A stretch of DNA of 64,000 nucleotides from Parcubacteria group bacterium (GTDB lineage Bacteria; Patescibacteriota; Minisyncoccia; SW-4-49-11), in contig CALRBF010000001.1 of NCBI GenBank assembly GCA_943354045.1, positions 343,598-407,597 of the forward strand. Reading direction: 5' to 3'. The position numbers and the translations under genes are program-made. Numbering within the stretch: position 1 is the stretch's first letter; the number at the start of each line of letters is the position of its first letter. The notes below the pieces were generated by a model. That model ran no database searches and was not told the DNA's origin. It saw only the letters and a list, made by a program, of their open reading frames with translations. Shown here in pieces: positions 17,379-63,498 of this stretch.

Positions 17379-19301
17379 ATGATCAAAGCTAAAAGAGTAC
17401 AAAAAGGGTTCACCCTACTCGAGATATTATTAGTAATAGCAGCAATAGGGATATTAGCGGCAATAATATTGGTGGCAATAAACCCCAATAGACAATTAGC
17501 ACAAGTAAGGAATGCAGAGAGGAGATCAGAAATAAATACAATATACAAAGCCCTAGAACAATATCTAATAGATACAAGGAGTTATCCCACAGGGATAACA
17601 ACATCAATACAAGATATATGTATAAATGGAAACACAACAAATTGTGTAAATTTAGGAGTATTAGTCCCCGACTATATAGCAGCAATACCAATAGATCCAG
17701 GAGGAGGGGCTTATAGAGTGGTAATAAATACAAGTAATAATAGAGTATCCGTATATGCCAGTAATGCAGAACTAGGACAGGGTATAGGTATCAATGACCG
17801 ACCTTGGACCCCTGCAAACATCAGTACGGCGCTTTGGTTGGATGCAGCGGATGCCAGCACGATCACGCTCAATGGCAGCACTGTTAGCCAGTGGAACGAC
17901 AAAAGCGGGAATGCGAAACACGCTACGCAAGCAACGGCTGCTAATCAGCCTGCATACACGGCCAGTGGTTTGAACGGTAAGCCAGTGCTGACTTGGGACG
18001 GAGGTAACGACGTGCTGAACACTGCATCAGCACTCAATCACCCTGTAAGCATCTACTCTGTTGCTCAACTTAGCGGTGCCACGAATTCAACAAGGGGGAT
18101 TGTTGGGTCAGGAAGTCAATCTTATTCCCTTGGCACTCTTAGCTCATCACCTGCTGCGACCTCCGCATATGCACTTTGGAATCCGTTCCTCAACGGCGGC
18201 GCGTACATAAACAACACGGCAACAACAGACCCTGTTGTTCTTGGTAGCACTACCGTTTCCAACGTCGAAAACACTTGGAATACTTATGTGAACGGCAGCA
18301 ATGCTGGGCAGGCAATTTGGGATACTGGCACGCCCGCGGCGCCTGGCTTTATTAGGATCGGCTACAGCGGCGTCGGCAGTGAATATTGGCTGGGCACTAT
18401 TGCTGAAGTAGTTATCACCTCGACAACCCTTTCCACCACCGACCGCCAAAAACTTGAAGGCTACCTCGCCTGGAAATGGGGCTTAACAAATAATTTACCA
18501 GCCAATCACCCATATAAATGGAATGGGACTGAATTTGGAGGAGTAAATATTACAGATACAGATGCCCAAACTTATATTGCAGCGGTAGAAACTGCAGATG
18601 GGCAGTCTTTAGAGAATAATACAAGATTAGCTATTCAAAACTTTATAGTTGGAGCAAAAACAGATGGTATATGGGATGCTATAAAATCATCTAATATACT
18701 AGCAGGAGCCAGAACTTTGACTGGAGCATTAGTACCCTTGAAGGGTACGGCACCGACAAACTTCAACTTTGTAAGTGGAGATTATAACAGGAAGACGGGA
18801 CTGGTGGGGAATGGGAGCACGAAGTATCTAGATAGCAATCGGAATAACAATGCTGATCCGCAAAACAGCTTTCACGTATCTGCGCAGATTTCATCGGCAC
18901 ATTCATTGTTGACGAATAGCACGTATATTGGTGCTGGAAATAGTGTTCCTGGACTTACTCATTTGGGAGCAGCCCGTCTAAGTGGCCTAGACACCTTGTT
19001 TTTTAGAAATCGCAGCACTACCGACATCCAAAGTGGTTCTGCTGGCACCACAGGTTTTATTGGAATGTCTAGACCAAATTCAACATCCATCAACTATCGT
19101 TTTAACTCTACGACCGCAACTGGAGCACTTACATCAGAAACTCCTTTTAACGGTAATTTGTTGATTTTTGGTCGAGTCGTTGGGCAACCATATATTGCTG
19201 GCCGTATCGCCTTCTACAGCATCGGGGAATCCCTAAACCTCGCCCTGCTGGATGCCAGGGTCACCCAACTTATGACAGATTTAGGTAATGCAATTCCATA
19301 A
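17379..19301 (+). CDS. Type IV pilin-like protein with two LamG/concanavalin-A-like domains
   Basis: Prepilin leader MIKAKRVQKG|FTLLEILLVIAAIGILAAI. The C-terminal region carries LamG-like motifs (LWLDAADASTI..SQWNDKSGN, EGYLAWKWGL). GC-rich segments at about 17800-18480 and 18720-19290. Confidence 0.7.
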   Translation: MIKAKRVQKGFTLLEILLVIAAIGILAAIILVAINPNRQLAQVRNAERRSEINTIYKALEQYLIDTRSYPTGITTSIQDICINGNTTNCVNLGVLVPDYIAAIPIDPGGGAYRVVINTSNNRVSVYASNAELGQGIGINDRPWTPANISTALWLDAADASTITLNGSTVSQWNDKSGNAKHATQATAANQPAYTASGLNGKPVLTWDGGNDVLNTASALNHPVSIYSVAQLSGATNSTRGIVGSGSQSYSLGTLSSSPAATSAYALWNPFLNGGAYINNTATTDPVVLGSTTVSNVENTWNTYVNGSNAGQAIWDTGTPAAPGFIRIGYSGVGSEYWLGTIAEVVITSTTLSTTDRQKLEGYLAWKWGLTNNLPANHPYKWNGTEFGGVNITDTDAQTYIAAVETADGQSLENNTRLAIQNFIVGAKTDGIWDAIKSSNILAGARTLTGALVPLKGTAPTNFNFVSGDYNRKTGLVGNGSTKYLDSNRNNNADPQNSFHVSAQISSAHSLLTNSTYIGAGNSVPGLTHLGAARLSGLDTLFFRNRSTTDIQSGSAGTTGFIGMSRPNSTSINYRFNSTTATGALTSETPFNGNLLIFGRVVGQPYIAGRIAFYSIGESLNLALLDARVTQLMTDLGNAIP

Positions 19302-19495: not shown

Positions 19496-20521
19496 ATGAA
19501 TAAAAAAATCCAAAAATCGGATCAAGAGCTACGCCATACACAACAAAATCAGATTGTGATTTATACAGGAGAAGATGGGCAATCTCGTCTAGAGGTAAAA
19601 TTTCAAGGAGAAACAGTTTGGCTAACACAGGCTCAGTTAGTAGACTTATTTCAATCCAGTAAAGCTAATATAAGCGAGCATATCAAAAATATATTTTTAG
19701 AAGGTGAATTAGATAAAAATTCAGTTGTTCGGAATTTCCGAACAACTGCCACAGATGGAAAAAATTATGAAGTAGAACACTATAATCTTGACCTCATAAT
19801 ATCACTCGGATACAGAGTTAAATCCAAAATAGCAACACAATTCCGTATTTGGGCAACTCAACATCTCAAAGAATATATCACCAAAGGCTTCACAATAGAT
19901 TCAGAAAAATTAAAAAATCTAGGAGGAGGAAATTATTGGAAAGAACTTCTAGAACAAATTAGAGATATAAGAAGTAGTGAAAAAGTACTTTATCGTCAAG
20001 TATTAGACCTATATGCAACAGCAATAGATTATAATCCAAACTCACAAGAATCATTAGAATTCTTTAAAACCATACAAAACAAATTACATTTTGCAGCACA
20101 TGGGCACACAGCCGCTGAGGTCATATACCTAAGAGTAGATTCAGACAAGCCATTTGTAGGACTACAAAACTTCAAAGGTAAACAACCAACCCAAGCAGAA
20201 GCAATGATAGCCAAAAACTTTTTATCCTTAACTGAATTAAAAATACTAAATAATTTAGTATCAGCCTACTTTGATTTTGCCGAGATAAATGCTATAGAAC
20301 AAAAGTTAATGAAAATGCAAGATTATATAATAGAATTAGACAATATTTTGCAATCTGCAGGTAGAAAACAATTATTCAATGTAGGTAAAATTAGTAATCA
20401 GGAAGCAATAGATAAAGCAACTACAGAATATAAAAAATATAAAGCCAAAACACTCAGCGAGGTAGAAAAAGCCTACTTAAAATCTATTAAAACCCTACAA
20501 AAAGATATAAAGAAAAAATAA
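19496..20521 (+). CDS. RhuM-family (virulence protein RhuM-like) DNA-binding protein
   Basis: The N-terminus IVIYTGEDGQSRLEVKFQGETVWLTQAQLVDLF...SEHIKNIF...RNFRTTATDGKNYEVEHYNLDLIISLGYRVKS..QFRIWATQ is a strong RhuM signature. Confidence 0.8.
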   Translation: MNKKIQKSDQELRHTQQNQIVIYTGEDGQSRLEVKFQGETVWLTQAQLVDLFQSSKANISEHIKNIFLEGELDKNSVVRNFRTTATDGKNYEVEHYNLDLIISLGYRVKSKIATQFRIWATQHLKEYITKGFTIDSEKLKNLGGGNYWKELLEQIRDIRSSEKVLYRQVLDLYATAIDYNPNSQESLEFFKTIQNKLHFAAHGHTAAEVIYLRVDSDKPFVGLQNFKGKQPTQAEAMIAKNFLSLTELKILNNLVSAYFDFAEINAIEQKLMKMQDYIIELDNILQSAGRKQLFNVGKISNQEAIDKATTEYKKYKAKTLSEVEKAYLKSIKTLQKDIKKK

Positions 20522-50455: not shown

Positions 50456-51157
50456 ATGACCCACACTGCTCTTTCTCAAGATGATGCCGTTCTTGACTTC
50501 ACCACTGCTGCCTACAAGGATGCCTACAGCCGCATCAACGCCATTGTGATCGAGGGCGAACAGGAAGCTCACGACAACTATCTCGCCCTTGGCACCCTGC
50601 TGCCCGAGCAGGCCGAGGAGTTGGACCGGTTGGCGCGGATGGAGATGAAGCACCTCAAGGGTTTCACCGCTTGTGGCGCCAATCTGGGGGTTGAGGCCGA
50701 TATGCAATTTGCTAAAGAGTTCTTCTTTCCCCTACATAATAATTTCCAAACGGCCTTAGCCGAGGGTAAATTGGTAACCTGTTTGCTGATTCAAGCTATA
50801 CTTATCGAGGCCTTCGCCATCGCTGCCTATCATATTTATATCCCGGTGGCCGATCCGTTTGCCCGGAAAATCACCGAGGGAGTGGTGAAAGATGAATACA
50901 CACATCTCAATTATGGTCAGGAATGGCTCAAGGCTCACCTTGAGGAGTCCCGTGCGGAACTGGAACAAGCCAATCGCGACAATCTTCCCTTAATACGGTT
51001 CATGCTCGATGGCGTGGCTGCCGATGCCGCTGCTTTGGGTATGGACAAGGAGGACCTGATGGCCGACTTCATGACCTCTTATCAGGAGGTGCTCACCGAA
51101 ATTGGTTTCACCTCCCGGGAGATTGCCCGGATGGCCGCTGCTGCTCTGCTCGGCTGA
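50456..51157 (+). CDS. ado: Aldehyde-deformylating oxygenase (cyanobacterial ADO, ferritin-like di-iron)
   Basis: Matches the cyanobacterial ADO family as recalled from memory: [78 protein letters not shown]. About 55% GC, well above the surrounding sequence. Confidence 0.85.
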
Positions 51158-52406: not shown

Positions 52407-52596
52407 GTTGCCATTGCTAGTCCAATAATTAAGAAATCCCTCTATCTTCAAGGTGGAGGGATTTTTACTTGTCTACAATCCCAAAAACAGCTTGTTATAG
52501 GTGCTTTGTATCCAATACACATAAACTTAGTATGGATTTATGTTACATGATATAATAAAACTATATTTACAAACCCCAAATTAATAAAGAAGTAAG

Positions 52597-53229
52597 ATGA
52601 ATATAACTATCATAGGGGCTTCGGCTGGAATAGGTTTAGAAGCGGTAAAAAGGGGATTAAATAGAAATCATTCTATCACAACACTTTCTCGATCTGAAGT
52701 TGAAATCGAGGATAAAAAATCATTAACAATGATACTTGGTGACGCCACCAATAAAGCCGACCTAATACAATCAATTCAAAATGCAGATGCTCTCATTATA
52801 ACATTGGGGACGAGACAAAGTATGAAGGCTACCACGCTTTTTTCAGATTTTGCAAAATTAATTGTAGAAATAGATAGAGAGAACAAAATAGATATTCCAG
52901 TCATTTTGGTTACCGGATTTGGAGCTGGAGAAAGTAAAAATTATGCCTCTTGGCCTGTAAAGATATTTTTGAATTTTTTCTTAAAAGATGTATATGCCGA
53001 TAAAACTAAAATGGAAGAAATTATCACTAACTCAGATCTAAATTGGACAATTGTGAGACCAGGCAGGTTATTAGATAAAGAATTAACAGAAAAATACCAT
53101 ATTGAAAATAAATTATTCAAAGGAATTAAAATTGGCGAAATTAGCAGAGCAGACTTAGCAGACTTTTTGATAAAACAGGCAGAAAAACAAACTGAATTAA
53201 AAAAATATATTACTATATCTGAAGAGTAG
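52597..53229 (+). CDS. NAD(P)H-binding protein (atypical SDR, NmrA/BVR-B-like)
   Basis: Rossmann motif IIGASAGIGLEAV at the N-terminus, about 210 aa. Confidence 0.6.
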   Translation: MNITIIGASAGIGLEAVKRGLNRNHSITTLSRSEVEIEDKKSLTMILGDATNKADLIQSIQNADALIITLGTRQSMKATTLFSDFAKLIVEIDRENKIDIPVILVTGFGAGESKNYASWPVKIFLNFFLKDVYADKTKMEEIITNSDLNWTIVRPGRLLDKELTEKYHIENKLFKGIKIGEISRADLADFLIKQAEKQTELKKYITISEE

Positions 53230-53240
53230 GATAAAGTAAA

Positions 53241-53325
53241 AGCTAAATATGAGGGGTTTCGAACCTTTGAGTGGGGGATATAGTGTTTCCCCCGTACCCC
53301 CCTCACTATAGTTTTGGAGGTTTGT
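53241..53325 (+). repeat. Copy of 'element E', a tRNA-3'-end-like repeat (GTTCGAACCTTTGAGTGGGGGATATAG...CTCACTATAGTTTTGGAG)
   Basis: Near-identical cores at 58409-58500 and 59133-59225. This copy lacks the CCGGAGCCA end. Confidence 0.7.
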
Positions 53326-53393
53326 AAAAATTTAGATAAAAATACCGGCATACAATATTGTATGCCGGTGAGTATGATGAAGTTGGGACTTAA

Positions 53394-54812
53394 CTAGTTC
53401 ATGGTACGAACTCTATTTCTTACTTCTGCAAAAGTGGTTTCTCGTAGGAGATTCCCATTCTCAAAAACAGGCTGTAATAGATTTGGGGTATTGAGCTTGA
53501 TAGCCTCTTCTTCTCTTACTGTGCGATAATGACCGTCAGTATGAATAAGTGCGAGGCGCCCAGGCTTAGACTTTTTCCCAGGATCAGTTACGGGATCTTT
53601 GAGAACATCGTGCCAGGTATTATCGCGAAGTATAGCCGAGGCTTTTATCGCAAACTTTTGTGTATCACGATTAACCTTTTGTAGTAATCCACCACCCGAT
53701 CCAAATGCCAAGTTGTCAGCGGACCAACCAGCTTGCTCTATTGAGAAAAGAATTTTTCTCAGCATTTGATAGTCAATACCATCTCCTTGAATGATACGTA
53801 CTTTGGGGTTTAATACCCAATAGCCTTTATCATTTTTACTCTTTCCAAAATACTGGGCGAGTAGTTCAAGAACTTTTAGTACAACTTCAACTGGTTCTCC
53901 ACTGTCCGGGCGAATTACGAGCACTCCATCTCTTGCAAGCACCTGATCACGGAGTTTTGTCCCCCATAATTCAGAGCAAGCATGATAAATGTCATAGCTG
54001 TCACTCACTACGGCAACGAGGCCTTCTGGGAATTGATTGAGCATATTTCGATAGGAATCTATCTCATGCTCTTTACCCCAGCTTGTTACGGTGCTGTGCT
54101 CTGCTGCAGGTATGGAAAATCCCGCCATAGGCTCTTGATAGTAACGGCGAGCATAAATGATGCCCGCATAGGTGTCACTGCCAGAGAAAGCTGTTAAGTG
54201 GGCCATACCACCAATGCCTGCCGATTCAACCGAGGTTGAACCACGAAAGCCAAAATCATGTACTTTGAAATCAATGCCTGCAGGGTCACCCGTCTCTAGG
54301 AGAGACTGATAAACTGCATTACGCATTTGCCGGCTTTGAGTGGCAATGGTTGTTGGATACCATACTAGGGAGAGAATAGTCTCGAGGTAATTAGTAATCC
54401 ATGGTAACTCCGGGTCAGTATTCTCAATGGTCATGAGTACATTTCCTGTGGGGACGGTTAATCCCTCAGGAACTGCAGAAATGCGTACAGGTAATTTCCC
54501 ATTATGCACTTCTACGATTCTCTTCCAGCCATTTTCATTGAATAGCTTATCATTACCGAAATGGAGAGCATAATCATTTTTTGCTTCAGCTATATCTTCC
54601 AGAGCAACTCGTTTTCCAACAAGATATTCCATGAGATAGTATTGAAGGCCAAAAAATGTAACTTCTGGGAAAACTCCACCACGACTCTCAAAAAAGGAAT
54701 ACACCTTTTGAGTATTGGGTGGATATTGTTTCCAATGAGTAAATTTGTAGCTATCGGAAAGAAGAATGGTGTTCATGATGCCGCGCAGATTGAGGGTGTT
54801 TTGTTGAAGCAT
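53394..54812 (-). CDS. nadV: Nicotinamide phosphoribosyltransferase
   Basis: N-terminus NTILLSDSYKFTHWKQYPPNTQKVYSFFESR matches the NAMPT family; about 470 aa. Confidence 0.85.
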   Translation of the reverse strand: MLQQNTLNLRGIMNTILLSDSYKFTHWKQYPPNTQKVYSFFESRGGVFPEVTFFGLQYYLMEYLVGKRVALEDIAEAKNDYALHFGNDKLFNENGWKRIVEVHNGKLPVRISAVPEGLTVPTGNVLMTIENTDPELPWITNYLETILSLVWYPTTIATQSRQMRNAVYQSLLETGDPAGIDFKVHDFGFRGSTSVESAGIGGMAHLTAFSGSDTYAGIIYARRYYQEPMAGFSIPAAEHSTVTSWGKEHEIDSYRNMLNQFPEGLVAVVSDSYDIYHACSELWGTKLRDQVLARDGVLVIRPDSGEPVEVVLKVLELLAQYFGKSKNDKGYWVLNPKVRIIQGDGIDYQMLRKILFSIEQAGWSADNLAFGSGGGLLQKVNRDTQKFAIKASAILRDNTWHDVLKDPVTDPGKKSKPGRLALIHTDGHYRTVREEEAIKLNTPNLLQPVFENGNLLRETTFAEVRNRVRTMN

Positions 54813-54822
54813 GATAATCTCC

Positions 54823-55734
54823 TTAGAAACAGTGTTTGGGGTTGTTCTGAATAAATTGCAGGAGCATTTCTCCTAGGGGGATATGGCTTGGGATAAGATT
54901 CTCCTTAAAGGTATCAAGAGATATCCAATGAAGTTTATCGATATCATCGCCAGGTTCAGGTCGCCCAAAAATGTAGCGAGCTACAAAAAAACGAGTCATA
55001 ATACCGTCTCGCGTTTTTTTATAACGCCAGTCAGTAATACGGGTAGATCCAAGATAATGCCAATCAGCAACCTCAAAACTACCAGCCTCTTCTCGTAATT
55101 CTCGCTTAGCCGCAGCTTCATCAGAGATGTCTGTGTTATCCACAAATCCTCCGAAAAATCGAAACTTACCTTCATCCTGATATTTTTCCGCAAGTAAAAC
55201 CTGACTAGGTCTTATAACTGCAATATCAACCGTGCTATAGGTTTGGGGTGGGCGATTTTGTACTGCATGAATAACTCCCTGTCTCCAGGCGGTGGATTTA
55301 CCAATACGGTCACGAGTTATGGTGCGATACTTTGTCCCATTATAATCCCTGTAATTAGGAATGGTGATTATTGGATAACAACCACTATAATAGGGGATAA
55401 ATGAATCTCGGCCACCATAAAGTGTTACTATCGAATTTCTTGCAATACCAGCTATAAGATGATCAAGTTGCCGAGACCAAATATAGTCACTTGGATGATC
55501 AAACTGCTCAAGAATAATCGCATTTGGATATTCTTGAGCAATCATCTGAGCCCTGGCTGCAAAAGAAAGGGGGTCTTTATCTGAGGCAAGTCCACGGCTA
55601 CTACCAAGAATAATAAGAAGTCTCTCATGCTCAGACATAGCTGCCTCAATAATTCGATGATGTCCTGGATGTAGTTTTGCCACTTGAAAGCGACCAACTA
55701 CCACTCCAAGAGATGAGGGGGGAAGAACTACCAT
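54823..55734 (-). CDS. nadM: Bifunctional NMN adenylyltransferase / ADP-ribose pyrophosphatase (Nudix)
   Basis: Nucleotidyltransferase motif VVVGRFQVAKLHPGHH (HxGH). C-terminal Nudix box GGFVDNTDISDEAAAKRELREEAG. Confidence 0.8.
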   Translation of the reverse strand: MVVLPPSSLGVVVGRFQVAKLHPGHHRIIEAAMSEHERLLIILGSSRGLASDKDPLSFAARAQMIAQEYPNAIILEQFDHPSDYIWSRQLDHLIAGIARNSIVTLYGGRDSFIPYYSGCYPIITIPNYRDYNGTKYRTITRDRIGKSTAWRQGVIHAVQNRPPQTYSTVDIAVIRPSQVLLAEKYQDEGKFRFFGGFVDNTDISDEAAAKRELREEAGSFEVADWHYLGSTRITDWRYKKTRDGIMTRFFVARYIFGRPEPGDDIDKLHWISLDTFKENLIPSHIPLGEMLLQFIQNNPKHCF

Positions 55735-55762
55735 AGGATTACCATTTGTGAAAGAACATTAA

Positions 55763-55849
55763 CACTACTTAGTGTAACTAATACATTTAGTAAAGTTAAA
55801 AAAAGAAGTGTTAATTTAGATAGTGTATCAAATACAATAAGTATTGTCA
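55763..55849. promoter_or_regulatory. Candidate NrtR operator(s) upstream of nadM-nadV
   Basis: Perfect palindrome ACACTA-CT-TAGTGT (55763-55776). The 19-mer ATACAATAAGTATTGTCAA (55831-55849) recurs inverted at 56635-56653 in the nrtR/pnuC divergent region. Confidence 0.4.
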
Positions 55850-55880
55850 AATATATAAAAGGATTATGGATATAATCCTT

Positions 55881-56585
55881 TTATAGGACTTCTATTTCTT
55901 CAACTTTTTTTGAAGTCATACGATATAATTCTGCTGGTCGAAAGGCTCCATTTGCTCTTTTTTTACCAGTAGATTTTACAATATCAAGCTTGAGTATTTT
56001 TTTACGAAAATTACGTCTATCGAGATCATTTCCCAATATACTTTCAAAAGCTCTCTCTAATTCAGTAAGCGTAAATTCACGAGGAAGTAGTTGTCCTATT
56101 AGGGTAGTATAATGGACGCGAGAAGCCAATCTCTTTAATGCTGTTGCGAGAATTTCATCATGATCATATGCCAAATGTTTAGCAGTATGTACCGGTGACC
56201 AATAAATTGATCCTTTACTATCCTTTTCTTTAGTAGTTAATTTATCTTCTGAAATTAATCCAATATATCCAACAGCCACAACTCGTCCACGTGGATCACG
56301 ACTAATATTACTAAATGTAAATAGTTGCTCTAAATATACTTTTTTTGAATTAATATATCCTTTTTCATCAATAATACGGCGAGCTGCTTCTTCTGCAATT
56401 TCATCAGGACGAATAAGTCCACCAGGTAATCCAGGCTGATGTACAAAGTGTGGGGGACGATTGACTGTCATAAGTCTGACATATAAAGCCCCATCAAATA
56501 TAGTAAAAAGGACAATATCAGTAGCAAGTATTGCAAAGCGTAATGGGGTAGGGTTTTCTGGAGAATTAATAGGAGATTTTTTCAT
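55881..56585 (-). CDS. nrtR: NrtR-like Nudix-related transcriptional regulator of NAD metabolism
   Basis: N-terminal Nudix-like domain (GLPGGLIRPDEIAEEAARR, degenerate Nudix box). C-terminal winged-helix domain. Located between nadM/nadV and pnuC/nadR. Confidence 0.65.
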   Translation of the reverse strand: MKKSPINSPENPTPLRFAILATDIVLFTIFDGALYVRLMTVNRPPHFVHQPGLPGGLIRPDEIAEEAARRIIDEKGYINSKKVYLEQLFTFSNISRDPRGRVVAVGYIGLISEDKLTTKEKDSKGSIYWSPVHTAKHLAYDHDEILATALKRLASRVHYTTLIGQLLPREFTLTELERAFESILGNDLDRRNFRKKILKLDIVKSTGKKRANGAFRPAELYRMTSKKVEEIEVL

Positions 56586-56634
56586 ATAAACTCACTTTAT
56601 CATGCGATATTCTAGATGTCAATAATACAATAAC

Positions 56635-56668
56635 TTGACAATACTTATTGTATATAGTACACTAAGTA
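56635..56668. promoter_or_regulatory. Candidate NrtR operator in the nrtR / pnuC-nadR divergent intergenic region
   Basis: TTGACAATACTTATTGTAT (56635-56653) is the exact reverse complement of 55831-55849. TACACTAAGTA (56658-56668) matches the half-site at 55766-55776. Confidence 0.4.
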
Positions 56669-56692
56669 TATTATTAATTTAATTGTATCATT

Positions 56693-57397
56693 ATGACTAC
56701 TGATATTCGTCCTATAAAAGCTCTTATTGGAACTAGATATGAACATATTGAATCTGTGAAGGTAGCCGTGGCTATGGCTATAGTTGTATTCATATATGAA
56801 GCTATTTCATCATTTATTATACCAGATTTCCAACTAAATTGGTTTGAAATTATTGGTACTTGGACTGGACTTATATGTGTTTGGTTAGCAAGAACTCAAA
56901 ATATCCTTACATGGCTGTGGGGAATTATAAGTGTTGGGCTCCTTGGGTATTTCTTTGCCACAATAGGCCTTCCAGGACAACAATGGCTAAATTGGGGATA
57001 TTTCCTTATTATTCAGTTTTGGGCCTGGCCTCAATGGGCTTTTGGAGGTAAGCAAGCAACTGTACTACCTGTTACTCTTCTTACCAATAAAGCAAGATTA
57101 ATTCTTCTAGCAATAGCTTTACTAGCTACAGGTGTTATTTATTTTTTGATAGATATTATTGTCCCCGGATCAACTCTCCCATTATTGGATGCAACTGTTG
57201 TCGCAAGTAGTATAGTGGCTCAGTATTTACTTGGTCTCAAAAAAGTAGAAAGCTGGGTATTATGGCTAGGACCAGTTAATCTCCTCTCTATTATATTATT
57301 CTTTATAGCAGGGGCGTATACGGTAATGGCTCTCTATATTGCTTATTTCATCCATGCTATATGGGCCTTAAGAACTTGGTATCAAGAAGCGCGTTAA
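56693..57397 (+). CDS. pnuC: Nicotinamide riboside transporter PnuC
   Basis: 7-8 TM, W-rich motifs (WLNWGYF, QFWAWPQW) typical of PnuC. Confidence 0.8.
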   Translation: MTTDIRPIKALIGTRYEHIESVKVAVAMAIVVFIYEAISSFIIPDFQLNWFEIIGTWTGLICVWLARTQNILTWLWGIISVGLLGYFFATIGLPGQQWLNWGYFLIIQFWAWPQWAFGGKQATVLPVTLLTNKARLILLAIALLATGVIYFLIDIIVPGSTLPLLDATVVASSIVAQYLLGLKKVESWVLWLGPVNLLSIILFFIAGAYTVMALYIAYFIHAIWALRTWYQEAR

Positions 57398-57407
57398 TTA
57401 TACGAAT

Positions 57408-58373
57408 ATGTTTTACAATGGACTTGTAATTGGTAAATTTTACCCACCACATAAAGGACATAAATTCCTTATTGATACGGCGCAAAAAATGAGTGAAAAT
57501 CTAACCATTATTATTTGTGCTAAAGATAATGAAACTATTCCAGGAACTTTACGAGCGCAATGGCTATCACAAATACATCCTAAAGCTAAAATCATATTGA
57601 TCAATGATAATAAATTGGCTGATGATGATTCAGAAGGTTGGGCAAAATATACTGTAGATATACTAGGATTTGTACCAGATGCTGTTTTTACATCAGAAGA
57701 TTATGGAGATCCATATGCTCATTTTATGGGAAGTATACATGTACTTGTAGATAAAGAGCGTGCCACTATTCCGATATCAGGGACATTGGTGCGTAATAAC
57801 CCTACAAAATATATAAAATTTCTTGAACCAAATGTGAGAGCATATTTTACAAGAAGAATTGTAGTATTAGGGGCTGAATCAACGGGTACGACAACTTTAG
57901 CTAAAGCATTAGCACAGTATTATAATACGGTATGGGTGCCTGAATATGGACGATATTTTAGTGAAGGAAAACGTTTTGTAGGATATGGTGAAGGGGATTG
58001 GACTACTGCAGAATTTGTAGCTATTGCCAAAGCCCAAGCAAAATTTGAAGATTCTCTCGCTGAATCAAGTAAGGGGATAGTGATTTCTGATACTGATGCT
58101 TTTGCTACAGCTATTTGGCATGAAAGATATTTAGGTTTTCGTGCTCCAGAAGTAGAAGCAATCTCCGCTAATAGAAGAGTAGATCTCTATATAATAACAG
58201 GAGATGAAATTCCTTTTGAAGATGATGGACTTCGCGATGGGGAAAATATTCGACATGAATTGCACCAACTTTTTATTCAGCGTGTCATAGAAAGTAAAAA
58301 GCCATATATTATAGTACAAGGTAGTGTAGAAGAACGGCTACAAGTTGCGGTAGAGGCTATATATAAACTTTAG
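57408..58373 (+). CDS. nadR: NadR-type NMN adenylyltransferase / ribosylnicotinamide kinase (no HTH domain)
   Basis: HxGH motif GKFYPPHKGH; P-loop GAESTGTTTLAKALA of the RNK domain. Confidence 0.8.
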   Translation: MFYNGLVIGKFYPPHKGHKFLIDTAQKMSENLTIIICAKDNETIPGTLRAQWLSQIHPKAKIILINDNKLADDDSEGWAKYTVDILGFVPDAVFTSEDYGDPYAHFMGSIHVLVDKERATIPISGTLVRNNPTKYIKFLEPNVRAYFTRRIVVLGAESTGTTTLAKALAQYYNTVWVPEYGRYFSEGKRFVGYGEGDWTTAEFVAIAKAQAKFEDSLAESSKGIVISDTDAFATAIWHERYLGFRAPEVEAISANRRVDLYIITGDEIPFEDDGLRDGENIRHELHQLFIQRVIESKKPYIIVQGSVEERLQVAVEAIYKL

Positions 58374-58382
58374 GAAATATAA

Positions 58383-59106
58383 AAGAGGAGACAAAAACCT
58401 CCTCTTTTATATTTTGGCTCCGGAAGCTGGACGACGTTCGAACCTTTGAGTGGGGGATATAGGTACTTACCTCACCCCTTTCTCACTATAGTTTTGGAGA
58501 AATGAAAAAGCCCCCGCAGTGGCGGGGGTGTGTGCTGAGTAATTGCTACTCAGGGGGTTTTCAAAGTTTCCCCAAGTTTTTGGCCTACTTGATGTAATGC
58601 GACAGCTGGCCACAGTGCAGTTGTACCTAGACCTATCACTAGTTGGGATCTAGATAGCTCTCCTTTCGGGAATTCTGGGCCAAAGGCACCTATACCGACG
58701 GAAAAACCGACCCCCAGTAGTGAGTATGACACTGAGTATGACACCAATACGATCCATGGAAATAGATCGATGGACTTTGCTGGTGCTTCTGGAGCAGTGG
58801 GGGTTGGGCTCTCAGTAGTCATTGGGAATAACGAACATTAGCAAGAATAACATACCACATTTTCCCAATTTTGTCAATATCAAACAACATTATATTCTAA
58901 CTTATACTTTACTTATATATAAACCAAAAAACAGCTAAAATAAGCCGTTTAAAGGGAGCGGGCTCCGCGAGTAGGATTGCAAACCAGTCGTGAATGAGAT
59001 TCACTCCTTGGAACCACTCGGTTCCAATACCTCCACCACGGGAAACTCCCGTTTCCCGACCCCTTCCCCAGGTTCTCATCCTACTCTCTCAAAAGACAAG
59101 AAATAT
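58383..59106 (-). repeat. Tandem unit A (724 bp): terminator + tRNA-3'-end-like element E + small 2-TM ORF + promoter + pseudo-3'-exon fragment
   Basis: Near-identical in organisation and sequence to unit B (59107-59889). The terminator AAAGAGGAGACAAAAA(C/T)CTCC..TTTT is identical to the one following the real tRNA at 59890-59916. Confidence 0.75.
58550..58822 (-). CDS. small hypothetical 2-TM membrane protein (unit A)
   Basis: 90 aa. N-terminus MTTESPTPTAPEAPAKSIDLFPWIVL and C-terminus ALHQVGQKLGETLKTP are identical to the unit B paralog. Own terminator hairpins downstream. Confidence 0.4.
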   Translation of the reverse strand: MTTESPTPTAPEAPAKSIDLFPWIVLVSYSVSYSLLGVGFSVGIGAFGPEFPKGELSRSQLVIGLGTTALWPAVALHQVGQKLGETLKTP

Positions 59107-59889
59107 AAAAGAGGAGACAAAAATCTCCCCTTTTATATTTTGGCTCCGGAAGCTGGACGATGTTCGAACCTTTGAGTGGGGGGTATAAGTACCTACCTCA
59201 CCATCTCCTCACTATAGGTTGGGAGAAATAAAAAGCCCCCGCAGTGGCGGGGGTGTGTGCTGAGTAATTGCTGCTCAGGGGGTTTTCAAAGTTTCCCCAA
59301 GTTTTTGGCCTACTTGATGTAATGCAACAAATGGCCACGCAGCGGTGATACCTGTTATCACTACTGTCTGGGGCAGTGTGAGTAGTTCTTGCGGGTATCT
59401 TGAACCTAAGATACCCTTGGTAAAACCTATTCCCAGCATTGTGTATGATGCCAATACGATCCATGGAAATAGATCGATGGACTTTGCTGGTGCTTCTGGA
59501 GCAGTGGGGGTTGGGCTCTCAGTAGTCATTGGGAATAACGAACATTAGCAAGAATAACATACCACATTTTCCCAATTTTGTCAATACCAAACAACATTAT
59601 ATTCTAACTTATACTTTACTTATATATAAACCAAAAAACAGCTAAAATAAGCTGTTTAAAGGGAGTGGTCTCCGCGAGTAGGATTGCAAACCAGTCGTGA
59701 ATGGGATTTACTCCTTGGAACCACTCGGTTCCAATACCTCCACCACGGGAAACTACCATTCCCATCAATCCCCCCACACCCCGTCTCGGACACCTACGGT
59801 TTCCGACACTCGGAGTAAACTCCTCGCTGCCTTCCTGTCCAGGGGGACTGATACCCCTTCCCCAGGTTCTCATCCTATACTCTCTCAAA
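59107..59889 (-). repeat. Tandem unit B (783 bp), paralog of unit A
   Basis: See unit A. Confidence 0.75.
59275..59529 (-). CDS. small hypothetical 2-TM membrane protein (unit B)
   Basis: 84 aa, paralog of 58550-58822. Confidence 0.4.
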   Translation of the reverse strand: MTTESPTPTAPEAPAKSIDLFPWIVLASYTMLGIGFTKGILGSRYPQELLTLPQTVVITGITAAWPFVALHQVGQKLGETLKTP

Positions 59890-59974
59890 AGATAAGAAAT
59901 ATAAAAGAGGAGACAAAAATCTCCCCTTTTATATTTTGGCTCCGCGAGTAGGATTCGAACCTACGACCAATCGG

Positions 59975-60530
59975 TTACACCTTATCCAAGTATTTCTACA
60001 AGGCGTGGACTATATCATCATCCATCATAGTGATGGAGCGAGGCGCTTCCACTGTATTGCTACAATGTACTCCCTTGCGGGATAGTCTCTGAACCTTCCT
60101 GAGATTTCTCAGGCTTGGCTGCTGATTTCCATAATGTTTCCATCTTAGGGTTCCAGCAATTCACCTCGTGTTTCAACTTCTGTTACCAGAAGAAGCTGCA
60201 ACTAGACCCGCATGAATTTCTTTGTGGCAGTTAGAGCATACCAATACACATTTATCGAGTTCATCTTTCATTTTATCCCAAGATCTTGTAATTCCTTTAT
60301 AGGATATTCCAAAGTCTTTTTGATTGGGATCAGTGTGATGAAATTCTAATGCATCTGTACAGGTATTGTATCCACATAAGGAGCATTTATCTCCCAAGTA
60401 AGATACAGCTTTTTTCTTGAGAAGTTTTCTTCTCTGAGAAACTGCATTTTTAAGATATTCAGCACGATCAGAATATTTTCTTTTGCCAGGCATACTAATA
60501 TAATTAGGTGTACGATGACTCAAGAAGGTA
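59975..60530 (-). mobile_element. Group I intron (about 556 nt) carrying an HNH homing endonuclease ORF
   Basis: Conserved R element GGTTCAGAGACTA (60083-60095, minus) and S element GATATAGTCC (60007-60016, minus) form P7. A candidate IGS GCAGCC is complementary to the exon end GGCUGU with a U-G wobble. Confidence 0.7.
60173..60493 (-). CDS. HNH homing endonuclease (intron-encoded)
   Basis: CSLCGY..EFHHTDPN..CVLVCSNCHKEIH is an HNH/zinc-finger motif. The start is chosen at MPGKRK; the ORF-track start at 60535 is the tRNA anticodon GTG itself. Confidence 0.7.
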   Translation of the reverse strand: MPGKRKYSDRAEYLKNAVSQRRKLLKKKAVSYLGDKCSLCGYNTCTDALEFHHTDPNQKDFGISYKGITRSWDKMKDELDKCVLVCSNCHKEIHAGLVAASSGNRS

Positions 60531-60616
60531 TTCACAGCCGACTGCTCTACCGCTGAGCTATCGCGGAATTAGATTTGAAAGGTACTTGTATATTGTACCG
60601 AATAAGAGAGATATAG

Positions 60617-62205: not shown

Positions 62206-63498
62206 ATGCCAAAATTCCAATTACCATCTGGATTTATTGAATATACTCCTGAAGAGCAGGTGAAATTTAATTATATATTGGATACTATTCGAGAAGAATA
62301 TGAACATGCAGGATTCGCTCCTATAGAGACGGCTTCTATTGGATATTCGGAGGTAATTCTCGCTAAAGCTGGAGGAGAATTAGATAAAGAAATATATCGT
62401 TTTCAAAAAGGGGATAGAGATTTGAGTTTACGCTTTGATTTGACGGTGCCATTAGCTCGCTACATAGCTGAGCATAATCGTAATATGGTGTTACCTGCCA
62501 AAATATATCAAATTGGCAAATCCTGGCGAGCTGAAAAACCACAAAAGGGGAGATATAGAGAATTATATCAGGCTGATATCGATATTATTGGTAATAATAG
62601 TAGGCTAGCTGAGGCTGAGATGTTGTCTGTTATTCAGAATGTTTTTGCAATTTTAGAATTGCCAGCAATTACCTTTAGAGTTAGTAATCGTAAAATTCTT
62701 GCGGGGTTATTGGATTCATATGGTATTACCGATATAGCTTCAATTCTGAGAATTGTAGATAAAAAAGCTAAATTATCTGAGGCGGATTGGATACAAGCTC
62801 TCAGGGATATACAAACTCCAGATTTAGCAATAGATACATTATTAAGTTTATTTGAAAATGGGAAAAATAATCAAGAAATAGGTAAATTATTACAGCAACA
62901 GAATATCGATAATAATTTGTATCAAGAGGGAATACAAGAGCTTGAAGAATTTGTTAAATATTTAGAGTTATTTCACGTTAAAAGCTATGTTATAGATATC
63001 TCGATTGTAAGAGGGCAGGATTATTATACAGGAACAGTATTCGAGAGTTTTCTTGCAGGACTAGAGTCTTTTGGAAGTATTTGCTCTGGAGGTAGATATG
63101 ATAATTTGGTGGGACATTATATCGATACTCCTATTACGGGATTTGGAGCTTCTATTGGAGTAAGTCGTCTATTTGGAATTCTGCGAGAACAGGATTGGTT
63201 CCAAGAAATTCAATATGGAGATACTACTAAGATAGGCGTATTCCTATTAAATGAGGATACTGTGGAGGATGATATCAAGTCAATTATTGCACTCCGAGAT
63301 GAGCAAGGAATAGCTTTTGATTTATATCCAGAAATTACCAATTTCAAAAAAGCCTTACAATATGCTAATCGTAAAAATTATACGGAGGCTATATTCTTTG
63401 GAGCTGATGAAGCGAAAGCCGGAGAGGTACTTATTAAAAATATGGAATCAGGAGAGCAGGTAATTGTATTGGTTGGGGATTTGGGGGAGATTGAGTAA
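62206..63498 (+). CDS. hisS: Histidyl-tRNA synthetase
   Basis: Class II motifs: LRFDLTVPLARY (motif 2 region), GGRYDNL (motif 3), C-terminal anticodon-binding domain. Confidence 0.85.
   Translation: MPKFQLPSGFIEYTPEEQVKFNYILDTIREEYEHAGFAPIETASIGYSEVILAKAGGELDKEIYRFQKGDRDLSLRFDLTVPLARYIAEHNRNMVLPAKIYQIGKSWRAEKPQKGRYRELYQADIDIIGNNSRLAEAEMLSVIQNVFAILELPAITFRVSNRKILAGLLDSYGITDIASILRIVDKKAKLSEADWIQALRDIQTPDLAIDTLLSLFENGKNNQEIGKLLQQQNIDNNLYQEGIQELEEFVKYLELFHVKSYVIDISIVRGQDYYTGTVFESFLAGLESFGSICSGGRYDNLVGHYIDTPITGFGASIGVSRLFGILREQDWFQEIQYGDTTKIGVFLLNEDTVEDDIKSIIALRDEQGIAFDLYPEITNFKKALQYANRKNYTEAIFFGADEAKAGEVLIKNMESGEQVIVLVGDLGEIE

Follow-up and report, generated by a model that had tools for sequence, protein, structure and literature searches.

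tRNA-linked genomic islands, of the kind mapped by Islander and TIGER, build up by tandem accretion, and integron arrays adjoin a gene for the IntI tyrosine recombinase and carry attC sites with R″/R′ inverted core sites. Decayed cargo arrays of a third type of element, the tycheposon, are reportedly found in Prochlorococcus. Bacteria of the candidate phyla radiation (CPR) have a minimal metabolism and are thought to rely on other cells for cofactors. Here, we describe a 64-kb stretch of contig CALRBF010000001.1 (the window, to whose positions all coordinates of genes, tRNA and repeats refer unless another contig is named) in which five genes for NAD salvage lie between direct copies of a short repeat, element E, within a variable array that starts at a tRNA-Asn gene. 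An earlier note on this DNA had read the gene cluster as a horizontally acquired integrative island. We instead favour, with a probability of about 0.6, a regulated NAD salvage module that is a long-resident but dispensable cassette of the E-punctuated tRNA-Asn array and is exchanged via E.

The window was compared with contigs from relatives. Six of these, from metagenome assemblies (L001–L006), were picked because they encode a NadV (nicotinamide phosphoribosyltransferase) identical to that of the window; others were reached through near-identical NadV or through histidyl-tRNA synthetase, HisRS (genome contigs). The HisRS encoded in the window (62206–63498) finds its best matches in CPR metagenome-assembled genomes labelled Saccharibacteria or Paceibacteria (94%, 81% and 70% identity), followed by Clostridia at ~45%, and DnaE matches generic models, not cyanobacterial ones. 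Judged from these matches, the host is a low-GC bacterium of the CPR/Patescibacteria with a reduced genome, which agrees with the reduced-genome organism imagined in the earlier note. A literature search on the CPR or Patescibacteria together with nicotinamide phosphoribosyltransferase or NAD salvage returned no relevant report.

Element E is ~85 nt long, usually lies between terminators and has a consensus in which a variable spacer separates two boxes that are almost invariant, GGACAATGTTCGAACCTTTGAGTGG and CTCTCACTATAGTT. Three copies occur in the window, all on the forward strand: E1 (53258–53319, previously placed at 53241–53325), a left-truncated copy that forms the distal boundary of the NAD cassette; E2 (58417–58499, core 58437–58499), the full-length proximal boundary; and E3 (59143–59225, core 59163–59225), with a copy of the terminator T1 (59101–59140) before it. 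That direct repeats of E flank the cluster, as first proposed from the sequence, holds on alignment: E1 and E2 lie on the same strand and share exact blocks of 26/26 and 18/18 nt (0.00 and 0.07 matches expected by chance), and their cores are ~84% identical over 63 aligned columns, counted by hand on the alignment. E1 is without the left ~20 nt (TGGCTCCGG...) found in E2 and E3. These last two copies form part of a tandem unit of ~726 bp, each unit opening with the bidirectional terminator T1 and then TGGCTCCG, with which E2 itself starts; read on the opposite strand, this octamer is the final 8 nt of tRNA-Asn.

The description of E as like the 3′ end of a tRNA proved weak. What E2 and E3 have in common with tRNA-Asn is confined to its final 8 nt (CGGAGCCA) and a GGTTCGAA motif, and E1 is without the tRNA octamer. 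Rfam searches at E ≤ 5 returned only noise for the element, and single-sequence folds were unremarkable (z between −0.2 and −1.8). On the strength of these results, of an ARAGORN search that found nothing and of an alignment of 23 copies, we rejected E as a tRNA, tmRNA or known RNA; the T-arm and acceptor helices of a cloverleaf also did not pair when the reverse strand of E was examined by hand.

Across lineages, the array that contains E is hypervariable between conserved flanks. It spans from the 3′ end of tRNA-Asn(GUU) to a DUF4336 gene; beyond it lie, on one side, the DUF4336 gene and a gene for aldehyde-deformylating oxygenase (ADO) and, on the other, tRNA-Asn, an open reading frame (ORF) of 174 amino acids (aa), YgjP, AhpC and HisRS. 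The window's array consists, in order, of two small-ORF cassettes, the NAD cluster and a gene for an NAD(P)-binding protein. L001 has a 103-aa ORF and a GrpB pair ahead of the NAD cluster and carries the 90-aa ORF cassette of the window elsewhere in its array, L007 has five additional genes past nadV, and L102 has yet other cargo. The congener L013 has no NAD genes between DUF4336 and tRNA-Asn; a rhodanese gene and others stand there instead, including one for a 434-aa protein that resembles M16 peptidases when its sequence is inspected by eye. Cargo differs in every lineage.

Searches with an E profile located copies at cassette boundaries in the window (three), L001 (three), L007 (five), L102 (four), L095 (five) and others too. 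Orientation of E is constant relative to tRNA-Asn, whatever way the neighbouring genes point, and E brackets the NAD cluster in all four cluster-bearing lineages (the window, L001, L007 and L102). Within the 64-kb window, E is confined to this one array. A scan for the exact E pattern found it in seven metagenome contigs, all low in GC and all representing the same region of related genomes, and in no viral contig of IMG/VR, so we rejected E as a phage attP site. The two boxes stay nearly invariant across lineages in which YgjP is only 67–70% identical. More distant CPR bacteria that carry the NAD cluster have neither E nor a tRNA beside it. The presence–absence comparison that the earlier note had called for shows a sporadic cluster, present in the window, in L001–L006, in L007 and in L102 and missing at this locus in L013. 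Comparison of these contigs thus shows the predicted NAD module as one cassette in a hypervariable array in which E marks each cassette boundary.

Comparison with L001–L006 revealed a sharp step in identity at each end of the cassette. To the left (52509–53271), the window differs from these contigs by 37 mismatches in 763 bp (4.8%); across the NAD block (53272–58402), it differs by 0–4 mismatches in 5.1 kb (about 0.08%); and to the right (58403–58507), where L002 alone could be compared, there are 14 mismatches in 105 bp (13%). Taken over the two sides, flank differences between two strains range from 3% to 13%. The last dense left-side mismatch, at 53271, falls inside E1 and the dense differences from L002 begin at 58403; homology with L001 ends at 58422, at the TGGCTCCG with which E2 starts. 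At fourfold-degenerate sites, the same contigs differ from the window at 6–36% in flanking genes (except YgjP, 0/60), and at 2/~700 in the five NAD genes. This pattern has the signature of a unit, running from E1 to E2, that was apparently exchanged or swept recently between otherwise diverged strains.

Over a longer span, the cluster has aged with its surroundings. Fourfold-site divergence from L007 is 0.10–0.20 for the NAD genes and 0.14–0.29 for the flanks; from L102, it is 0.095–0.25 and 0.06–0.28, respectively. Since divergence of the cluster equals that of the flanks in both, the cluster was at the locus before these lineages split. Codon usage is similarly unexceptional: codon-usage distance is ordinary for all five genes (z = −0.06 to 0.71), a result that makes them native and runs against a foreign origin. 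Composition had been cited for such an origin, with a GC content of 42–45%, which is overstated. nadV (43.2%) and nadM (42.0%) lie in that range, but pnuC (37.3%), nadR (35.5%) and nrtR (34.8%) fall below it, and the cluster span as a whole stands at 38.4% against 34.2% for the rest of the window. Most of the excess in nadV and nadM is in first codon positions; GC content at third positions (GC3) is 0.36 for nadV (z = 1.6), 0.29 for nadM (z = 0.6), 0.17 for nadR and 0.15 for nrtR, on a background of 0.25 ± 0.07.

The relatives of NadV likewise lie within the CPR. Beyond the near-identical contigs, its closest matches are 81%, 77% and 76% identical, the contigs of the first two (L100 and L009) having 54–56% GC, and named CPR bacteria of the Parcubacteria group follow at 64–69%. 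Although 2019 phage records match, the best of them is 53.6% identical, and we rejected a phage origin of nadV on this difference. The gene order pnuC–nadR–nrtR–nadM–nadV also occurs in a row in a complete Campbellbacteria genome (CP064977), and two further CPR contigs hold subsets of the five genes. The case for a recent gain from phages or distant donors is accordingly not borne out: the codons are native, the nearest NadV proteins are those of other CPR bacteria and the cluster has diverged with its flanks. Because codon usage is native and divergence is in step with the flanks, the proposal of a recent foreign origin fails on the very grounds, codon usage and descent, by which the earlier note had proposed to judge it.

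All five genes named in that note, and the pathway drawn from them, are supported by the ORFs and their Pfam domains. nadV (53394–54812, reverse strand) encodes a nicotinamide phosphoribosyltransferase with NAMPT_N (PF18127, 120.4 bits) and NAPRTase (PF04095, 198.8 bits) domains, and passes the equivalog threshold of NCBIfam PRK09198 (622.6 bits, cut-off 405). The adjacent nadM-type gene (54823–55734, reverse) joins a nicotinamide mononucleotide (NMN) adenylyltransferase (NMNAT) domain (CTP_transf_like, 22.8 bits, threshold 21) to an ADP-ribose pyrophosphatase-like Nudix domain (NUDIX, 49.7 bits, threshold 21.1); GRFQ..HPGH and RELREE motifs are legible in its translation, and its scores against the NCBIfam PRK05379 equivalog models are all far under the cut-off (54 bits against 449). 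nrtR (55881–56585, reverse) encodes a Nudix-related repressor with a winged-helix DNA-binding domain (NrtR_WHD, PF21906, 84.4 bits, cut-off 27; NUDIX, PF00293, 29.2 bits), which scores 129.6 bits against the NCBIfam model ‘ADPR responsive transcriptional repressor’, under its cut-off of 400. On the forward strand, pnuC (56693–57397) encodes a nicotinamide riboside transporter (NMN_transporter, PF04973, 124.4 bits) that passes the equivalog threshold of TIGR01528 (72.6 bits, cut-off 42.45).

The last gene, of nadR type (57408–58373, forward), encodes an NMN adenylyltransferase with a ribosylnicotinamide-kinase-like domain (CTP_transf_like and AAA_28). It scores 207 bits on TIGR01526, under the cut-off of 341, matches four solved NadR structures (PDB 9x6f, 8x7f, 1lw7 and 6gye) and has the HKGH motif of the NMNAT domain. 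The protein has no helix-turn-helix domain and is therefore not a repressor. The P-loop of its kinase (residues ~155–163) reads GAESTGTTT, against the usual Walker A GxxxxGK[ST], with threonine in place of lysine. The same substitution occurs in the Campbellbacteria NadR homologue (54% identical), and the remainder of the domain is highly conserved. We regard the biochemical reading of the cluster as solid, the pathway itself being textbook knowledge.

Rodionov et al. (2008; PMC2330246) characterised the sites of NrtR as palindromes of 21 bp that have GT-N7-AC at their core, and predicted operators in the window fit both features. The regions upstream of nadM and pnuC have a 39-nt sequence in common, within which lies an imperfect 21-bp palindrome, TTAnTGTA-N5-TACAnTAA; the form conserved over the nadM and pnuC promoters is TTAGTGTA-N5-TACACTAA. 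Matches to the operator pattern number six in the window, compared with 1.1 expected by chance, and the best three all fall within the two promoter regions of the cluster. One of these (56645–56665) has no mismatches to TTANTGTA-N5-TACANTAA and overlaps the pnuC promoter (56635–56663, forward) at its spacer and −10; the other two have one mismatch each, at 55820–55840, across the spacer and −10 of the nadM promoter (55850–55822, reverse), and at 55769–55789, in the nadM upstream region. Both promoters have the form TTGACA-17-TACACT. An intrinsic terminator of the nadM–nadV unit (53344–53369, reverse) consists of a stem of 11 bp with a T-run after it.

Five lineages (L007, L009, L098, L099 and L100) have the motif ahead of nadM, pnuC or nrtR as well, upstream of nadM in all five, even though NadV in the last four is only 66–81% identical to that of the window. 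Because the conserved operator overlaps the nadM and pnuC promoters, NrtR control of the cluster, predicted in the earlier note, is well supported by sequence comparison. There would be three transcription units—nrtR, nadM–nadV and pnuC–nadR—with NrtR binding the predicted palindromes that overlap the nadM and pnuC promoters at their spacer and −10 and, by analogy with its family, ADP-ribose releasing the repressor. Family membership suggests that nicotinamide would be converted to NMN by NadV and then to NAD by the NMNAT domain of NadM, the Nudix domain of which probably removes ADP-ribose; nicotinamide riboside would be imported by PnuC, converted to NMN by the NadR kinase and then to NAD by the NadR NMNAT domain. 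Families and operators together suggest a self-contained, repressor-controlled NAD salvage module.

This arrangement resembles described NrtR regulons (PMC2330246) in the architecture of the repressor (a degenerate Nudix domain with a winged helix), in the 21-bp operator with its GT-N7-AC core, in its targets (nadV, nadM, pnuC and nadR) and in the divergence of nrtR and pnuC–nadR, as in Hahella. It departs from them in its CPR host, in holding both amidated salvage routes in one 5-kb cluster, and in having no prs or pncB gene; NrtR, NadM and NadR here score under NCBIfam equivalog cut-offs, and threonine replaces the P-loop lysine of NadR. Phages also carry nadV–nadM pairs, including the NARP2 NAD-reconstitution pathway (PMC13464706, PMC9503650), with the same two-enzyme route from nicotinamide through NMN to NAD. 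Unlike the phage pairs, nadV and nadM here have no phage context and belong to a host regulon with a repressor, a transporter and NadR.

As an array, the locus has points in common with each of the systems named at the outset. Like tRNA-linked accretion islands, it begins at the 3′ end of a tRNA gene, its accessory blocks are delimited by repeats with tRNA 3′-end sequence and its content varies among close relatives; unlike them, it has no integrase that we could find, its E repeats hold just 8 nt of the tRNA, its composition is native, its repeated unit includes the terminator downstream of the tRNA and its blocks are small, of one to a few genes. Tycheposons likewise pile up small cargo units with partial-tRNA repeats beside tRNA genes, in hypervariable islands of a streamlined aquatic bacterium, but they are defined by their own recombinase and replication modules, of which we saw none here, they belong to a different lineage, and E is unrelated to any of their att sites that could be compared. 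Integron arrays share with this one a single conserved site per cassette, the same orientation throughout, a single locus and cassettes shuffled between strains. However, no IntI gene adjoins the present array, E shows no R″/R′ cores by eye (no dedicated attC search was run) and only a weak hairpin, and its cassettes, which can point either way, bring promoters and terminators of their own and contain up to five genes. Membership of any of these systems fails on the recombinase. Our verdict is of a known pathway in a new host group, with a cassette context that is a variant of known island architectures and only partly understood.

If the cluster were a recently acquired integrative island, delivered into the tRNA gene by a phage or integrative element, E1 and E2 would be its attL and attR. 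Much that suggested this stands: the cluster is accessory, direct repeats bracket it, a tRNA-Asn gene is nearby, the locus in L013 is without it, nadV and nadM are GC-richer than the genome, and nadV is found in many phages, as the 2019 matching records attest. What does not stand is E as an att pair specific to the island, for E also bounds other cassettes and includes only 8 nt of the tRNA. No integrase was found in the scanned ORFs of the window or in the relatives' flanks, codon usage is native, NadV is closer to other CPR bacteria (64–81%) than to phages (≤53.6%), viral contigs are devoid of the E pattern, and cluster and flanks diverged together in L007 and L102. We consider this explanation largely refuted and very improbable. 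Native codon usage and divergence equal to that of the flanks would also suit an ordinary, vertically inherited chromosomal operon, in which E is a passive intergenic repeat of the repetitive extragenic palindromic (REP) or terminator-associated kind and the identical block arises from contig choice or assembly. Other CPR bacteria do hold the cluster with no E or tRNA nearby, E usually adjoins terminators, and L001–L006 were selected on an identical NadV protein. That selection, however, does not account for the complete lack of synonymous differences in the remaining four genes, and it leaves the identity steps in E1 and at E2 unexplained. Nor does a passive repeat sit easily with an element that is found only in this array in the window and, in all seven metagenome matches, only in the same region of relatives, that keeps its boxes nearly invariant where YgjP is only 67–70% identical, that holds its orientation to the tRNA irrespective of neighbouring genes and that separates cargo differing in every lineage. 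A purely vertical history seems to us improbable, though less so than the island.

The explanation that we prefer is exchange of a long-resident cassette via E. On this reading, the cassette would be an old resident of the genus, lost or replaced in at least one lineage, exchanged as a unit between co-existing strains with breakpoints in or next to E, and not a recent import from a phage or distant donor. Movement would depend on one of two engines: homologous recombination, with the conserved E and terminator sequences as its substrate, or a recombinase whose gene lies elsewhere. Given how little the E boxes vary and that E keeps a single orientation, we lean slightly to site-specific recombination at E over homologous recombination. 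A further suggestion is that E is the site of an undescribed site-specific cassette system, functionally attC-like or like the att site of tycheposons, anchored at tRNA-Asn and served by a recombinase whose gene is at another place in the genome or is borne by a helper element. In its favour are a single E at each cassette boundary in constant orientation, two nearly invariant boxes flanking a variable spacer, cassette positions that vary between strains, breakpoints at E and other repeats of the tRNA-Asn 3′ end in the array (the S element described below, with 18 identical nt). Against it stand the failure to find a recombinase in ~64 kb here or in the relatives' flanks, the lack of integron-type inverted core sites visible by eye in the E consensus (which was not put through a dedicated attC search), a weak consensus fold and the fact that an identical pattern would arise if conserved E and terminator sequences recombined by homology. 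We hold this explanation to be possible but unlikely. Slightly more doubtful is its fuller form, in which E is the recombination site of an undescribed CPR gene-cassette system without an adjacent integrase and a recombinase elsewhere inserts, excises and swaps cassettes; if true, this would be a functional analogue of integrons and tycheposons in ultra-small bacteria, with cassettes ranging from single small ORFs to a five-gene NAD regulon.

Several points weigh against the long-resident, E-exchanged cassette that we prefer. No domain of an integrase or other recombinase was detected in the window, where the scan took in 46 ORFs (almost every one of ≥150 aa, together with the ORFs adjacent to the cluster), nor in the Pfam lists for ±10 kb in L001 and L007, nor in the relatives' cargo; the proposed mobility therefore has no engine in the sequence covered. 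The 23 aligned copies of E give only a weak consensus fold (−6.2 kcal/mol, covariation term −0.1), with no covariation support. Selection of L001–L006 by identical NadV protein could create part of the identity step, and part could be an assembly effect, as metagenome assemblers can switch strains at repeats. The absence of the cluster from L013 applies to this locus only and not to the whole genome. nadM and nadV are richer in GC3 than nrtR, pnuC and nadR in every CPR lineage examined, most strongly in L099 (0.88 and 0.71 for nadM and nadV against 0.31–0.35 for the other three); the nadM–nadV regions compared were 5079–7404 in L099, 9074–11419 in L009, 1873–4208 in L100 and 53394–55734 in the window. 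This excess could reflect expression bias or an older, separate transfer history of the pair. Lastly, with no lysine in the P-loop of NadR, the route from nicotinamide riboside may not function in the way set out above.

In this cluster, one regulated unit would take both nicotinamide and nicotinamide riboside through to NAD. As an optional unit exchanged within a freshwater CPR genus, it suggests that NAD scavenging may be a strain-level, tradable trait and not part of a fixed core. What is new is the setting, a repeat-punctuated array at a tRNA gene in which no recombinase was found; if E is a true recombination site, it would show how very small genomes shuffle accessory functions.

The tRNA-Asn(GUU) gene that anchors the array lies on the reverse strand at 60567–59937. 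ARAGORN did not call it, or any other tRNA of the window; the gene escapes the program through being split by a group I intron that contains an HNH ORF. Exons read from the sequence lie at 60567–60534 (5′) and 59977–59937 (3′), the gene being split after the second anticodon base (CUGU/UAA), with a 5′ exon that ends in U, an intron that ends in G and a mature length of 75 nt. The 556-nt intron (60533–59978) matches Rfam RF00028 at 59986–60224 (73.3 bits) and contains an ORF resembling an HNH homing endonuclease (60493–60173, reverse; a weak Pfam match). The intron is also present in L002, in L095 (HNH 81% identical) and in L094 (no HNH match), and is absent from L001, L007, L013 and L102, which have an intronless 75-nt tRNA-Asn at the same site. 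Directly upstream of the intronless tRNA-Asn in L001 (3764–4027) and L102 (3202–3441) is a free-standing gene for a small GIY-YIG nuclease; the window is without this gene and has the HNH-bearing intron instead. The statement that the NAD cluster abuts the tRNA locus is true in substance: the stop codon of nadR (58373) and tRNA-Asn are 1563 bp apart, a distance that two small cassettes occupy.

Directly after nadR comes a T1 hairpin (58374–58413), a near-copy of the bidirectional terminator that follows tRNA-Asn. It does not appear in our terminator-scan list, in which the other two T1 copies (59101–59140 and 59897–59936) both do. The first small-ORF cassette (58511–58950, reverse) comprises a terminator (58528–58511), a membrane-like ORF of 90 aa (58822–58550), a promoter (58877–58849) and a T2 terminator (58950–58929); the second (59275–59529, reverse; 84 aa) is a diverged duplicate inside the ~726-bp tandem unit. 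The duplicated regions span 58483–58900 and 59209–59607 in the window and correspond to 12322–12739 in L001, at another position of the array. The protein of 84–90 aa that they encode is membrane-like (MTTESPTPTAPEAP...) and matched no family; the cassette has its own promoter and terminator.

Between these cassettes is a GC-rich folded repeat, the S element (58961–59088, reverse strand), the terminal 18 nt of which match the 3′ end of tRNA-Asn exactly; a second copy (59668–59884) has an insertion of ~90 nt. The forward strand of the S element folds far better than shuffled controls (z = −4.25), with a closing stem that uses the tRNA-identical 18 nt. No Rfam family matched the element, and copies are also present in L001 and L002.

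Among other genes of the window, ADO (50456–51157, forward), an enzyme of cyanobacterial alkane synthesis, occurs here in a CPR genome. Its product scores 387 bits on TIGR04059 and has the ADO of Prochlorococcus MIT9313 as its best solved relative (E = 5e-112). The gene is a compositional outlier, at 53.6% GC with a GC3 of 0.62, where the genome has 34% and 0.25. L001, L007 and L013 have it too, and it has no acyl-ACP reductase gene beside it. Its features suggest that a picocyanobacterium donated it fairly recently, which may give a clue to the host association. A cyanobacterial identity for the organism itself, for which this gene and the 34% GC might speak, was rejected, since the gene is such an outlier, DnaE matches generic models and HisRS is closest to CPR genomes. 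Elsewhere, a gene for a RhuM-family ‘virulence protein’ (19496–20521, forward; 327 bits in Pfam) adjoins a pilin-like gene of 640 aa (17379–19301) with an unusually high GC content of 44.8%.

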